From the IMG/VR virus record IMGVR_UViG_2663763232_000002, positions 1 through 9,060 of that record: a DNA stretch of 9,060 nt. One strand, 5' to 3'. The position numbers and the translations under genes were made by a program. Of the stretch, positions 4,623-8,492 are shown one piece after another. How positions within the stretch are numbered: the first letter of the stretch is position 1; each line of letters begins with the position of its first letter. The DNA is from a virus. Its lineage: Duplodnaviria > Heunggongvirae > Uroviricota > Caudoviricetes. The notes under the pieces were generated by a model. That model was not told the DNA's origin. It searched no databases and was given only the letters and a program-made list of their open reading frames with translations.

Positions 4623-4801
4623 CTTGTTTTCCTCGCACGTTCTCTAAGCCACCGGATATCCCACAGGTGAGCCGTGTAGTTGAAGGTTTTTACGTCAGAT
4701 TCTTTTGGGATTGGCTTGCGTTTATTTCTGGAGCGTTTCGTTGGAAGGTATTTGCAGTTTTCGCAGATGATGTCGGTGATACTTCGTCGCTGTCGTCTCA
4801 T
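4619..4801 (-). CDS. ninE: NinE (60 aa)
   Basis: Internal ATG at 4801-4799 with an AGGAGG Shine-Dalgarno 5 nt upstream gives '[60 protein letters not shown]', matching lambda-type NinE from memory. The ATG overlaps the methyltransferase stop (ATGA, 4798-4801). The ORF-track 90-aa version is a spurious 5' extension. Confidence 0.75.
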
Positions 4802-5343
4802 GCCGCCCTCCTGACGCCCTGCCCGATCGCCATCAATGCCACTTTGGATACGGTAGTAAACATCCGTCGAGGACTGATGAACGGTCGCCAAATCAGCAGC
4901 ATGGAGCCTTTGCTGTTTCCCTTTTTCTCCAGCCCTGTCGATGGTTCGATAAAATTAATCCGTCCATCAGTGATAATACGAACTTCGTCAACACTCTCCA
5001 GAGCCTTGCTGAACCATCCGACTGACATATCCTCTGGCACAAGCATCACTACCGTCTGTCGCTGTTGTATGCACTGCTCAGCGGCTTTTTCCACCCACGG
5101 CCTGATATTGCTGTACGGTGGGTTATTCCAGATTGCACCGTGGCTTATCCACTCAGAATTGAGCGCGTTGTCAGCCTCAGTTAGCCAGTGAGCGCACAGA
5201 GCATTTTTGTCGCTCGCTGCCGAATCCAGCCAGAATCCAAACTCAATATCCAGTGCATCAAAAAGCCAGAGCGGCGTTTGCCAGCAGTCCTTGTCGTGTG
5301 CTGGCGTATTTGATTTGATAGTCATGCAGCCCGATCTCCCCAT
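4798..5343 (-). CDS. Phage DNA N6-adenine methyltransferase (Dam-like, orphan)
   Basis: '[28 protein letters not shown].......L...W....[17 protein letters not shown].......Q.VVMLVP' carries the NPPY catalytic motif IV and matches the phage Dam (PF05869-type) pattern. No cognate restriction gene is adjacent. An alternative ATG at 5325 overlaps the HNH stop as ATGA and may be the true start. Confidence 0.85.
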
Positions 5344-5924
5344 CTCGCTTTCATTTTTTCATTTGCAAATCGCCAGAATCTTCCTTTGTGATATGAGCTT
5401 TCGCCATTACAGCAACGACTAATTGACGAACTATCAAATCCTTCTCTGACAGCATCCATAGCTGCTTCATAATAAACCTCCTCCCCAGTTTTCATGTCAG
5501 TAGAAATAACAGCTTTACTGGCAGGATGGTCACCACTAAATTTACCTAGCGATATAGGTATTCTTCCATTTTGTTTATATCCGTGTTTTGAGTTTTCAGA
5601 ATGTGATACCCATTCAAGGTTATCAGCCCTATTGTCATCTCTTCGCCCATTTTTGTGATTAACTACCAAGCCATCACAGAACCCTGTACAGAATGCTTTC
5701 GCAACTATCCTGTGGGCGCTGTATTTCTTACCGTATACCTTTATTTGAAGATATCCTGTCGACTTGCACTTGAATGGTTTTACACTAGTGCCATTAATTA
5801 TTTTCTTATATGGCCTCTGTCTGGTTGATGTTACTGTAACTTCCCTCGTAATAGACCTAAAATTTCCTTTATTGCTAACCTGATAAAATGGAATCCCTTC
5901 GATATCTACCCAAACCTCAATCAT
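5322..5924 (-). CDS. Free-standing HNH homing endonuclease (NUMOD4 + HNH_3-type)
   Basis: N-terminal NUMOD4-like 'EVWVDIEGIPFYQVSNKGNFRSI'; HNH core 'H-KNG-RRD-DN-RAD-NL-EWVSHSE-N-SK-H'; C-terminal 'F.S...AA...G.....IS.CC.G...S..G..WRF', typical of phage HNH endonuclease DNA-binding tails. GGAGG Shine-Dalgarno before the ATG at 5924. The gene body is markedly AT-rich. Confidence 0.85.
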   Translation of the reverse strand: MIEVWVDIEGIPFYQVSNKGNFRSITREVTVTSTRQRPYKKIINGTSVKPFKCKSTGYLQIKVYGKKYSAHRIVAKAFCTGFCDGLVVNHKNGRRDDNRADNLEWVSHSENSKHGYKQNGRIPISLGKFSGDHPASKAVISTDMKTGEEVYYEAAMDAVREGFDSSSISRCCNGESSYHKGRFWRFANEKMKARWGDRAA

Positions 5925-6333
5925 AATTCCTCCATTCGCTAAGATGAATTGAGTTCATGGCACAATATGCTTCTATGTAGTCCATTATTTCGGATATTTT
6001 TTTTACAGATAGAGTCGCCGTACTCTCTCTGATGTTTATTAGCTCACCTTCTAACCCTGATATAATCTCAGGGTGCTGGTTGGTTGCAATCTGCCAACCA
6101 GAAACGAATAACCCCTTCCAAAACTCAATATTTCTTGCTTTTCCATGATATGTAGCCTTCTTACTTATTTCAGATAGCATCGCGTGAAGGCGTGCATTTT
6201 GCCGAATGCTGCGGTTGCGTTCCTGAATGGTTACTACGATTGGTTTGGTTGGGTCTGGAAGGATTTGCTGTACTGCGTGAATAGCGTTTTGCTGATGTGC
6301 TGGAGATCGAATTTCAAAGGTTAGTTTTTTCAT
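5917..6333 (-). CDS. ninB: NinB (Orf-family recombination mediator), mosaic allele
   Basis: The first ~41 residues, 'MKKLTFEIRSPAHQQNAIHAVQQILPDPTKPIVVTIQERNRS', match lambda NinB as I recall it; the remainder is homologous but divergent. GAGGGAAG Shine-Dalgarno before the ATG at 6333. Confidence 0.85.
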   Translation of the reverse strand: MKKLTFEIRSPAHQQNAIHAVQQILPDPTKPIVVTIQERNRSIRQNARLHAMLSEISKKATYHGKARNIEFWKGLFVSGWQIATNQHPEIISGLEGELINIRESTATLSVKKISEIMDYIEAYCAMNSIHLSEWRNYD

Positions 6334-6526
6334 GACTTCCCTCTCTAACAGATTTCAGGTTATTCCACTCCGTTACCGCACTGCGATAATTCGCGGCCGC
6401 CACAGCAGCGTGGTTAGCGCAGTAGATTTCGCACCCGCTCTCCATGTCAAATATTGTCGGTGATTTTCCGCATTTACATTTTTTGGCACGCGGTGCGTCT
6501 GAACACATTCCGTTAACGGTGTCCAT
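6314..6526 (-). CDS. Small Cys-rich hypothetical protein (70 aa, zinc-ribbon-like)
   Basis: Strong Shine-Dalgarno (GAGGGGGA) before the ATG at 6526. Cysteines are arranged C-x8-CxC...C-x3-C. It is the first gene after the terminator, in the position of ren in lambda. No family recognised. Confidence 0.5.
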   Translation of the reverse strand: MDTVNGMCSDAPRAKKCKCGKSPTIFDMESGCEIYCANHAAVAAANYRSAVTEWNNLKSVREGSHEKTNL

Positions 6527-6550
6527 CAGGATCCCCCTCGTTCTTAATCC

Positions 6551-6581
6551 AATAAAAAAGGGCTACTGTGTAAATAGCCCC
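6551..6581 (-). terminator. Intrinsic terminator downstream of the primase-helicase (tR2-like position)
   Basis: Minus strand reads 5'-GGGCTA-TTTACACAG-TAGCCC-TTTTTTATT-3': a 6-bp stem (7 if the flanking G:C is counted), 9-nt loop and 6-T tract, between the replication gene stop (6612) and the first nin-region gene. Confidence 0.6.
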
Positions 6582-6611: not shown

Positions 6612-8492
6612 TTAATACTCCGTCACGTTTTCCTGTCGCCACGCCTCGTCATATTCCGATTTCGGCATATTGGCGATGTAGCTATAAGGCGATCCTGATT
6701 CAAGTTGCAGGAACTGGTGCGATTGCTCGTCAAGGAACAAAGGGACGCCACCTTCCCAACCTTCGCCGTTACGTTGCTTTTCAAGCATCAAAACAGATGC
6801 CGGAGATGCCAGTAGCTGTTCGTCCTTCTCTGACATCTTTTCACCACTCTGAACTCTCTGTAACGCTCTCTCGCGAGCCTTGTTACGCCAGATGATGAAA
6901 AGGTTGTCTGTCAGGTCTGTTATCGCTCCAGAGCCTTTTACGTCCATTTTCCCGGTTGGTTTTTCTTCGCTGTCACCTTTTCGCGAGTGAGTAACGAGAA
7001 TGACGTGGGAGTTTGTTTTGTTTTTGAAATCGCAAATCGAGTCAACAAACGCCTTCTGCCCGTTATAGTCATCGTCGCCTATGCCACATTTCATTAGGCT
7101 GTCGATGATGAATAACTGGATCCCGTATCGGCGGCGAGCGTAGTCGAATATTTCGATCAGCCTGTCGGCTTTCGCCGTTCCGGTCAGACCAAACACCCAA
7201 AGTCTTTCGTCATAAAATTTAAATGCAGAGTCAATTTCCAGCACTGGCGGCATCTTGCAGCACGTCGCCTGACGGGTAAGGCGCTTAAGGAGAATACCAG
7301 GCTTCAGCTCAAGTGACGCGATGCACGTCTTCACACCCTGACGCATTGCCTCAAGTGCCATATGCCCGACAACCTCCGTTTTTCCGTGACCGTTCACACC
7401 ATTGACCAGCGTCAACTCGGCCTCACGGAACTGGAATTTATCTGCCAGAGATTCCCACGGTGGATTAAACAGATACTGCTGCTTGCCGTAGAAAGCGTTG
7501 ATAGTGTCCTGGTAAAACTCTCGCGCGCTGTAGAGTTCTTCAGGATCGAAGTAGGATGCCGTGCCGATGTACTGCCAGATTTCATCCTCGGTAACACCGT
7601 TCATCAGGCATTCGTTGATGTCTTTGTACGGCAGAGTAACAAGACGGCAACGATGTTCACCGAGTCGGCTTGCGATTTCCCTTGCGGCTTCACGACCAAC
7701 ATCATCAACGTCCATCGAGATGAATATTTCCTCAAACCTGTCGAGGTTGTGATACTCAAACTCAATCCACTGTTGCTTAGCGCCTTTCCCGCCACCAAAC
7801 GGCACGGATAACGCCGAGATGCCGTATTGCGCATAGCTCATACAATCAATTTCGCCTTCGCAAAGTACAACCGCCCTCACGCCAGCGTCCAGAGCCTGCC
7901 ATCCGAACAGACAAGGTTCGCAATCACCTTCTGCCATAATGACTTTCTTCCCGTCCGGGCGCTCAGTGCTGATTCGCTTGACCTGCAACAACTCACCATC
8001 GCGTTTGTACGGAATCACCAGAGCATCCAGTTCTCGCTCTCCATTCCACACCTTGCCGCTGACAACCTCGTAGCGCTTTACGACTTCTGGCGATATGCCA
8101 CGCGATTGCAGGTACTCAAGATGGGATTCTGTTCTGGTAACGTAGCGGGCGATTTTCTTGCGATCAGGTCTGGAGAATTTCTTCTCACGTTTGGCATCGA
8201 AATGGTGATCGTCATCCTTGATACCGAGAAATGCTTTCGCTTCCTGCATAGCCTGATGCAGGTTAATTCCTCGACATGCCATCCACAAATCAAGCATGTC
8301 ACCGCCGTCCCCCTCAGCGAAATCAGCCCATTTTTTCTTGCCGCTAAGGTTGACCTTAAGGCTGTTTCCCTTGTCACCGTTGACGTTACCGGCAACCCAC
8401 TCATGCCCCTCTTTCTTGCCGTTTGGCAACAGGTGCGGAGCCACCCTGTCAACCTGCGCCCAAAGCAGGTCGCTAAGTTCACTTGGCGTCAT
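6612..8492 (-). CDS. Bifunctional DNA primase-helicase, T7 gp4-like (degenerate zinc-binding-like domain, TOPRIM primase, DnaB-family helicase)
   Basis: TOPRIM motifs 'VVLCEGEIDCMS' and 'ISMDVDDVGREAA', and 'LPYKDINECLMNG' (T7 gp4 has 'LPCKDANECHLNG'). Helicase Walker A 'NGVNGHGKT', Walker B 'LFIIDSL', and 'VKGSGAITDLTDNLFIIWRN' (T7 has '[20 protein letters not shown]'). GAGGGA Shine-Dalgarno before the ATG at 8492. Confidence 0.9.
   Translation of the reverse strand: MTPSELSDLLWAQVDRVAPHLLPNGKKEGHEWVAGNVNGDKGNSLKVNLSGKKKWADFAEGDGGDMLDLWMACRGINLHQAMQEAKAFLGIKDDDHHFDAKREKKFSRPDRKKIARYVTRTESHLEYLQSRGISPEVVKRYEVVSGKVWNGERELDALVIPYKRDGELLQVKRISTERPDGKKVIMAEGDCEPCLFGWQALDAGVRAVVLCEGEIDCMSYAQYGISALSVPFGGGKGAKQQWIEFEYHNLDRFEEIFISMDVDDVGREAAREIASRLGEHRCRLVTLPYKDINECLMNGVTEDEIWQYIGTASYFDPEELYSAREFYQDTINAFYGKQQYLFNPPWESLADKFQFREAELTLVNGVNGHGKTEVVGHMALEAMRQGVKTCIASLELKPGILLKRLTRQATCCKMPPVLEIDSAFKFYDERLWVFGLTGTAKADRLIEIFDYARRRYGIQLFIIDSLMKCGIGDDDYNGQKAFVDSICDFKNKTNSHVILVTHSRKGDSEEKPTGKMDVKGSGAITDLTDNLFIIWRNKARERALQRVQSGEKMSEKDEQLLASPASVLMLEKQRNGEGWEGGVPLFLDEQSHQFLQLESGSPYSYIANMPKSEYDEAWRQENVTEY

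Follow-up and report, generated by a model that had tools for sequence, protein, structure and literature searches.

The 3′ part of a hybrid ninB gene and the adjoining HNH endonuclease gene form a discrete cassette in the nin region of a lambdoid phage

The hybrid ninB gene

The stretch of DNA analysed here, referred to throughout as the window, comprises 9,060 nucleotides (nt) of the Caudoviricetes record IMGVR_UViG_2663763232_000002 and represents the early-right, nin and lysis region of a lambdoid phage, read on the minus strand. We focused on two adjacent minus-strand genes in it, ninB (6333..5917, 138 amino acids, aa) and an open reading frame (ORF) for an HNH endonuclease (5924..5322, 200 aa). 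Across them lies a foreign cassette of 855 nt (5353..6207, minus strand), consisting of the 3′ part of ninB and the body of the endonuclease gene, which replaces 284 nt of lambda (40770-41053). The product of ninB is a NinB/Orf protein, as it matches PF05772 over residues 3-130 (E=1.2e-40, 138.8 bits against a cutoff of 23.8) and is homologous to the solved lambda Orf structure 1PC6 (E=3.4e-34).

Comparison with lambda's own sequence record divided the gene in two. Its first 42 codons, the lambda-type N-part (6208..6333, minus strand), are 100% identical to lambda in both nt and aa. Together with a 12-nt leader (6334..6345, minus strand; lambda 40632-40643), at which the lambda-type homology begins on the left, they form a blastn match of 138/138 nt between window 6345..6208 and lambda 40632..40769 (E=2.7e-68). 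The matches to Shiga toxin (Stx) phages and Escherichia coli genomes start at window 6345 as well. Codons 43-138 and the stop (5917..6207, minus strand), which we term the W-type C-part, are an AT-rich, distant replacement of the NinB helical domain, with about 24% aa and 41% nt identity to lambda in a codon-guided alignment. A maximum chi-square scan placed the breakpoint at nt 126 (chi2 124.6), a value that none of 300 permutations reached. The breakpoint is at codon 42|43, window 6208|6207, and the reading frame and the full length of the gene are kept across it. A preliminary description of this DNA had proposed a chimera with a breakpoint at codons 41-45, joined in frame and giving a full-length Orf-family protein, and on all these points it was borne out: divergence from lambda is not uniform along the gene, and sets in at nt 126.

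The same description had called the DNA of the N-part GC-balanced and had expected a compositional step at about 6200, and here the data did not follow it. The GC content of the N-part is 44.4%, which does not differ significantly from the 39.2% of the C-part (Fisher p=0.33), GC at third codon positions (GC3) is the same in the two parts (0.381 vs 0.375), and the best GC change point, at about 6177, has a weak likelihood ratio. GC or codon composition was rejected as a marker of the breakpoint on these grounds, and what stands is the low GC of the cassette as a whole. The C-part is continuous in composition with the endonuclease body (38.7%), and the 855-nt segment, at 38.8%, is essentially the lowest-GC stretch of that length in the window (mean 48.6%, standard deviation 3.3). 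The joint is defined by sequence identity and not by composition.

Could a single divergent ninB allele with a better conserved N-terminus produce the same picture? The N-terminal patch VVTIQExxRS is indeed conserved throughout the NinB family. However, the identity of 138/138 nt, which includes synonymous sites, falls to 41% at a point unmatched in 300 permutations, and this excludes differential constraint; moreover, the N-parts of native W-family proteins are only 33-50% identical to that of lambda. Because of this distance, sequence comparison identifies the window ninB as a true hybrid of two distant family members. The reverse possibility, that lambda itself is the chimera, came up as some W-family N-parts are lambda-like (P0003, P0005, P0018). 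It was rejected, as the 33-50% identity of native W N-parts to lambda's is comparable to the C-part distance, and as both ends of lambda ninB flank the cassette in the lambda-collinear phage APC_JM3.2, described below.

The left recombination joint falls at the end of a conserved patch, GTAGTAACCATTCAGGAACGCAACCGCAGC, which encodes VVTIQERNRS in codons 33-42 (6208..6237, minus strand). In a nt alignment of ten alleles this is the sole patch with substantial nt identity between lambda-type and W-type genes, and native W relatives retain most of it. Its last 12 nt, CGCAACCGCAGC (6219..6208), are common to lambda-type, W-type-carrying and K-type alleles and to every E. coli module type seen. In the ten-allele alignment the alleles of lambda, the window and Salmonella phage SEN22 are identical through AGC (S42) and split at codon 43, and for the alleles of two E. 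coli prophage loci (L003 and L015) identity begins at CGC (R39).

An AlphaFold model of the window NinB (pLDDT 78.5) has strands (E) and helices (H) in the order E2-7, H11-22, E32-37, H43-59, H69-83 and H110-126. In this model the N-part corresponds to a β1-α1-β2 unit (RAGNYA half-fold) plus the loop ahead of helix α2. The published architecture of Orf likewise has an N-terminal β-α-β unit followed by a helical domain (PMC2034487, PMC4118853), and the β-α-β unit was recognised there as a RAGNYA half-fold (PMC2034487). The modelled junction thus sits in the loop that separates the β-α-β unit from the helical domain; a hybrid with its joint in this loop is likely to fold. The window NinB is 8 residues shorter than lambda NinB and lacks the C-terminal KARWGDRAA, which is now found on the endonuclease.

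The endonuclease gene and its ninB-derived tail

The ORF that follows ninB encodes a free-standing HNH enzyme with a NUMOD4 module (Pfam, 1.4e-13), an HNH_3 domain (2.4e-11) and an I-HmuI-like C-terminal DNA-binding region; its match to the I-HmuI_NUMOD-like family is at 9e-4 and 19.2 bits, under the cutoff of 27 bits. Over residues 55-186 it is homologous to I-HmuI (1U3E, E=3.7e-14). The gene begins at its own ATG, with an 8-nt overlap between its start and the ninB stop, and is preceded by a Shine-Dalgarno sequence, GGAGG (5933..5929), within the ninB codons for E-W-R.

At its other end the gene runs into lambda again. The last 31 nt (5322..5352, minus strand) are the last 31 nt of a lambda-type ninB (29/31 identical to lambda 41054-41084), and they are now read in their original frame as the C-terminal tail of the endonuclease, KARWGDRAA* (nine codons and the stop, marked by the asterisk). 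At the endonuclease stop the ATGA overlap of stop and start codons is kept, so that the next gene, dam, is translationally coupled. The tail lies outside the enzyme fold, because the homology to I-HmuI stops at residue 186, and relatives of the enzyme 193 aa long are without KARWGDR. Between the left joint and this right joint blastn found no homology to lambda. The right edge, which was absent from the preliminary description, is as precise as the left.

Endings of a similar kind recur in this region. The dam gene ends in ...GVRRAA* with GGCGGCATGA (4798-4809), which echoes the ninB tail GGGCTGCATGA (5322-5333). The HNH C-termini at five loci (L002, L007, L009, L020 and L021) all read ...AA* followed by ATGA. 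The 193-aa enzymes end in RF(G/A)Dx(R)RAA*, reminiscent of RWGDRAA* in lambda NinB, and the more distant ones in NRSAA* or NRSSAA*. The '...RAA*/ATGA' junction appears to be a recurrent module boundary of the nin region. The '...RAA*' tails of all these enzymes may be an ancient ninB remnant, or merely a stop/start coupling signal of the nin region.

Enzymes of the I-HmuI family are often encoded in introns, and this would favour an HNH gene set in a group I intron or an intein within ninB. The gene organisation and the RNA search both argue against such an origin, which we rejected: ninB is complete and uninterrupted and terminates at its own stop, where its relatives terminate, the endonuclease is a separate ORF after it, and Rfam detected no intron-like RNA in 5200-6450, either at gathering thresholds or at E<=1. 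Both the intron-encoded origin and the single divergent allele discussed above are refuted by these observations, and we attach virtually no credence to them.

The cassette in other genomes

The clearest view of the cassette as a unit comes from Escherichia phage APC_JM3.2, which carries the same 855-nt segment with the same two boundaries and is collinear with lambda on both sides. Its left flank is 97.5% identical to lambda 40567-40769, and its right flank, ninC included, is 99.1% identical to lambda 41054-42263. The two collinear genomes present a presence/absence polymorphism at one defined site, which is empty in lambda and occupied in APC_JM3.2.

We then surveyed 5,426 complete E. coli genomes with a query whose first 138 nt are the lambda-type part. 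Matches were found in 1,361 genomes. The foreign segment occurred in 77 of these, and was at full length in every genome that had any of it (77/77). Approximately 1,280 genomes matched nt 1-138 of the query only, that is, the lambda-type 5′ end, and their match stopped at the same nucleotide. Among phages, the C-part was present at 99% identity or above in 63 records of the collection, and the endonuclease gene at this level in 62, with one more at 95-99%. The non-lambda part of ninB had been described as continuous with the endonuclease, and this holds for its transmission, whole in all 77 genomes, as well as for its composition.

The closest complete match to the ninB-HNH part of the window (99.7%) is an Stx1a prophage of E. 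coli RM9088. When this prophage is compared with phage 86, the cassette shows 0/855 differences, the N-part 20/126 and dam 6/528, and beyond these the two are unrelated. In this the joint acts like the left border of a tract that can be transferred, in agreement with the earlier suggestion that it might mark such an edge. Similarly, the cassette of the window is 98.0-99.8% identical to copies that have unrelated neighbours. Near-identical cassettes (at least 98.0%) follow at least four different N-parts, namely one identical to lambda, an H19Y variant, one beginning MRKLTFELRSPIH... and an unrelated type beginning MKCVKY..., and they precede at least four different genes, dam, ninC, ninE and a gene with a P63C domain. 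The dam gene is a variable right neighbour outside the cassette, its counterpart being ninC in APC_JM3.2 and ninD in SEN22. Two E. coli prophage loci (L003 and L004) are without the methylase and have ninE or the P63C gene instead, with the HNH tail joining ninE directly. The cassette is a discrete unit between two ninB-derived homology patches.

These patterns have to be weighed against passive mosaicism, by which W-type ninB and the endonuclease gene would be an ordinary nin module exchanged by Red/RecA (relaxed) recombination at short patches, codons 33-42 on one side and '...RAA*/ATGA' on the other, with the endonuclease as a passenger. Both joints do lie in the only stretches of nt identity between the partners, '...RAA*/ATGA' is found at the borders of the dam module and of further nin genes too, as expected of generic module boundaries, and the cassette allele is in the minority. 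Lambdoid phages and prophages have been documented to undergo relaxed recombination with each other (PMC3945230). What passive exchange leaves unexplained is the linkage of the ninB C-part to the endonuclease in 77/77 genomes and 62/63 phage records and across deep divergence, while the surroundings reassort. It also leaves unexplained two observations presented below, the purifying selection on the endonuclease and the concentration on one small gene of three endonuclease insertions that represent two architectures. We consider this explanation a serious one, and on balance unlikely.

Relatives of the cassette and selection on its genes

To place the C-part, residues 43-138 were searched against 5.8 billion proteins, which returned a graded family ranging from 85% down to about 55% identity. 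Its named W-type members come from Salmonella, Yersinia, Mixta, Pantoea and a metagenome bin labelled Acinetobacter. The gene after W-type ninB was examined in 12 distinct arrangements. It is a NUMOD4-HNH gene in nine of them (the window; L003-5; SEN22; L006; L007; L009/L010; L020; L021; and L011, truncated by IS1), an HNH_3+AP2 enzyme in one (L008) and a 60-aa ORF in one (L012), and in the last (L014) NinG follows directly, with no endonuclease.

In the nine arrangements, which extend from E. coli to Yersinia, Pantoea and the Acinetobacter-labelled metagenome-assembled genome, the C-part and the endonuclease gene are adjacent and diverge together. Their identities to the window copies (C-part/HNH) are 0.99/0.98, 0.85/0.78, 0.83/0.75, 0.83/0.72 and 0.71/0.66. 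The ratio of nonsynonymous to synonymous substitution rates (dN/dS) of the C-part is approximately 0.03-0.04 in comparisons with SEN22, L006 and L007, which indicates purifying selection and suggests that the window NinB is functional. The endonuclease gene is likewise under purifying selection, with a proportion of nonsynonymous differences (pN) of 0.13-0.22 at saturated synonymous sites, and the enzyme is intact. The cassette of Salmonella phage SEN22 diverged anciently from that of the window (79% nt identity in the C-part and 73% in HNH, synonymous sites saturated). Its lambda-type N-part is nevertheless 97.6% nt identical to that of the window (synonymous divergence, dS, 0.07), and the joint is at the same nucleotide.

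Some of the other arrangements deserve mention in their own right. The HNH_3+AP2 enzyme of L008 (L008:3410-3958) is 182 aa long, has the same 8-nt overlap with ninB and ends in ...GETKRAA*, and the C-part of the ninB preceding it is 74% identical. In a Mixta prophage (L011:2910-4012) the NUMOD4-HNH enzyme is cut to 123 aa, with an IS1 transposase fragment downstream; this was the only clearly decayed endonuclease copy seen. The 60-aa ORF of L012 was considered as an HNH remnant and rejected, as it gave no Pfam match and no convincing alignment.

Such tight and ancient linkage, together with translational coupling through the 8-nt overlap and an HNH ribosome binding site inside ninB codons, would also be expected if W-type NinB and the adjacent HNH enzyme made up a two-gene recombination module, an unfused counterpart of Orf-HNH proteins (DUF968), with the chimera reflecting acquisition of the module. 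Published NinB-HNH fusions have been interpreted as collaboration between the two activities (PMC2034487, PMC4118853). Yet the nuclease of the window is of the NUMOD4-HNH_3 type and homologous to the homing nickase I-HmuI, not of the DUF968/HNHc_6 type: the two proteins are encoded by separate ORFs, and in Pfam neither matches PF06147 or HNHc_6. The linkage involves the C-part only, with the N-part freely exchanged, the slot is filled by an unrelated HNH_3+AP2 enzyme in L008, and more distant NinB relatives have no HNH at all (L014). In addition, in a second type of cassette, to which we now turn, it is the other half of NinB that is accompanied by a different endonuclease, which fits the logic of a target site better. 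For these reasons we hold a functional partnership to be quite improbable.

A second cassette on the 5′ side of ninB

The second cassette is unrelated to the first, mirrors its anatomy and borders on the same conserved patch of codons 33-42; it was found outside the window, in E. coli prophages (L003:2412-3094, likewise in L004 and L005, and L015:2513-3200). It comprises an ORF for an HNH_3+AP2 endonuclease that opens with lambda-like ninB codons 1-32, fused in frame. After the stop of this endonuclease there is a new ninB start with an unrelated N-part of 34 codons (MKCVKY...EFKQ), which joins the rest of ninB at CGCAACCGCAGC. In L003-5 this N-part leads into the W-type C-part and then NUMOD4-HNH, and in L015 the C-part after it is of the lambda type (97% identical). 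The 5′ and 3′ cassettes are thus found in all four possible combinations. The 5′ cassette is rare, occurring in 8/5,426 complete E. coli genomes, in all of them at full length.

In total, three endonuclease insertions of two architectures cluster on ninB. It is typical of homing targets that different endonucleases settle repeatedly at one site. Both enzymes also take over signals of the gene, the 5′ one starting with codons 1-32 and the 3′ one ending with the last nine codons and the stop. We tentatively propose that ninB of lambda-like phages is a two-sided homing hot spot, settled by NUMOD4-HNH on its 3′ side and by HNH_3+AP2 on its 5′ side. Each enzyme would bring one half of ninB in re-coded form, leaving the protein complete, and would take over one old translation signal, and the shared 30-nt patch (codons 33-42) might be, or flank, both recognition sites. 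We regard this as possible rather than probable.

Gene content of the window

Around the two genes, the window, read on the minus strand, has the layout of a lambdoid nin region. Upstream of ninB are a primase/helicase gene (8492..6612) and an ORF for a 70-aa Cys-rich protein (6526..6314) that has no Pfam match. Downstream of the endonuclease gene is dam, which encodes a Dam-family N6-adenine methyltransferase (5325..4798; PF05869, E=6.3e-65). It is followed, in this order, by ninE/ninF-like DNA, a DUF1364-like gene, rusA, ninH-like and Q-like genes, two tRNAs and the lysis genes. The tRNAs, tRNA-Thr(tgt) and tRNA-Asn(gtt), lie at 2624-2779, between the Q-like antiterminator gene and the lysis genes. 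The corresponding position in Stx phages is occupied by tRNAs and stx; a toxin gene is absent from the 9-kb window.

A further difference from lambda was observed to the left of the ninB leader. Window 6611..6580 matches lambda 40567-40598, directly past the ren stop, at 31/32 nt, and the adjoining lambda 40599-40631, a hairpin and T-run that we take to resemble the terminator tR2, is swapped in the window for an insert of 234 nt (6579..6346). The insert contains most of the ORF for the 70-aa Cys-rich protein and a hairpin/T-run of its own near 6575-6545 (minus strand). Its two flanks adjoin directly in lambda and in APC_JM3.2.

Discussion

Taken as a whole, our analysis suggests that the segment described here is probably a cassette built on a free-standing homing endonuclease, which brings along a re-coded version of part of its target gene and is propagated through gene conversion that the endonuclease initiates. 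When a phage without the cassette shares a cell with a carrier, in a mixed infection or through a resident prophage, its lambda-type ninB would be nicked or cut by the predicted HNH enzyme, within or adjoining the 284 nt that are replaced. After resection, the genome with the cassette would serve as template for repair of the break, and the conversion tract would end only at resumed homology, to the left in the patch of codons 33-42 and to the right in the ninB tail. The joints would be sharp and recurrent because a conversion tract can only end where homology resumes. A full-length Orf-family protein is restored by the distant 3′ two-thirds of ninB that the cassette supplies, and, because the HNH frame extends into the former ninB tail and stop of lambda, translational coupling to the next gene is kept. 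Its re-coded C-part would make the carrier immune, with NinB function kept; the replaced region is 41% nt identical to that of lambda, and in this respect the sequence provides what self-immunity would need. We infer that the transfer is endonuclease-driven, that is, a co-conversion. The higher conservation of the cassette than of its flank (0/855 vs 20/126 differences) is the sole indirect evidence for endonuclease-dependent over-transmission.

Several points weigh against this interpretation. The sequence does not allow a cleavage site to be derived. Ordinary homologous recombination between a lambda-type and a W-type gene should have its crossover precisely at the left joint, because codons 33-42 are the only shared patch, and sharp boundaries by themselves therefore need no nuclease. 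The cassette is a minority allele in E. coli, in 77 genomes vs approximately 1,280, where a very efficient drive would give a different outcome; this argument is tempered by the fact that prophage populations rarely meet in mixed infection. Finally, the HNH gene is almost always beside W-type ninB, across divergence that saturates synonymous sites. A host-beneficial role of the enzyme is possible, because classical selfish homing endonuclease genes (HEGs) are usually patchier and often decayed. In the same direction, Orf-HNH fusions in Gram-positive phages have been read as functional partnerships (PMC2034487, PMC4118853).

Among known systems, the proposed homing cassette most resembles the T-even endonucleases SegF, SegG and MobE, for which intronless homing, or localized marker exclusion, has been described in T4 (PMC2790892, PMC2988022). 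These too reside outside introns and inteins, beside a conserved gene, with presence/absence polymorphism, and with such free-standing HEGs flanking sequence is co-transferred and the neighbouring gene of the carrier differs from that of the recipient (PMC2790892, PMC2988022). What accompanies the endonuclease in the cassette, however, goes beyond a few polymorphisms: two-thirds of the neighbouring gene are re-coded (41% nt identity), in a form that restores the reading frame. The HNH enzyme also borrows the last nine codons and stop of its target gene, and its host is a temperate lambdoid phage. I-HmuI, the HNH nicking endonuclease of SPO1 (1U3E), is homologous to the window enzyme across the HNH and C-terminal DNA-binding regions. 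Its gene resides in a group I intron within a DNA polymerase gene, whereas the window HNH has no intron and carries an extra N-terminal NUMOD4 module and the ninB-derived tail, of 14 residues. As for the NinB protein, its residues 1-42 are identical to lambda Orf, the whole protein belongs to the same family (PF05772, 1PC6) and the order of secondary structure elements agrees (PMC2034487), but the C-terminal 96 residues are only about 24% identical.

Other parallels are partial. Orf-HNH fusions (DUF968, PF06147) also associate an Orf-like DNA-binding module with an HNH nuclease (PMC4118853, PMC2034487), but the HNH of the window is of a different subtype, is encoded by a separate ORF and is tied to one half of ninB only. 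Gene 31 of the P22-like phage epsilon34 is, like the window HNH, an endonuclease ORF fused in frame to a fragment of the interrupted host gene (PMC2629481), and in the 'HEG islands' of ICP1 nuclease genes mark the boundaries of recombined segments (PMC10448857). In these two reports ninB is not involved, and no cassette replacing the displaced gene part is described. Intragenic joints of lambdoid phages such as the Erf 'domain swaps' (PMC2629481) also create a novel joint at a domain boundary and a functional-looking hybrid; unlike them, the joint in the window has an endonuclease gene linked to it, and many genomes show it at the identical nucleotide. The cassette belongs with the free-standing homing endonucleases that co-convert their flanks, and is unusual among them in carrying a replacement for the gene part that it displaces.

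The genes of the cassette are present in hundreds of public records, where they are annotated as NinB and as HNH/NUMOD4. In the literature, our coverage of which is incomplete, we found no published description of the hybrid NinB, the borrowed ninB tail, the two exact joints or the mirror-image 5′ cassette. The findings bear on annotation, as the 'NinB' of many Stx phages is a hybrid without the lambda C-terminal segment, and the adjacent 'HNH endonuclease' ends with a piece of NinB.

Intragenic mosaic joints of lambdoid phages are usually ascribed to rare illegitimate or short-homology recombination followed by selection. The joint described here lies in a well-studied lambda gene, is mapped to the nucleotide at both ends, is shared by dozens of genomes and comes physically linked to the gene of a homing-type endonuclease. 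It offers a concrete and testable mechanism, nuclease-driven gene conversion bounded by resumed homology. As the empty site is the ninB of wild-type lambda, and APC_JM3.2 and the Stx prophages are its natural occupied counterparts, the homing hypothesis is accessible to standard lambda genetics. If ninB is indeed a two-sided hot spot, wild-type lambda would itself contain natural sites for homing, and some of the mosaicism within the genes of lambdoid phages would be driven by nucleases and not passive.

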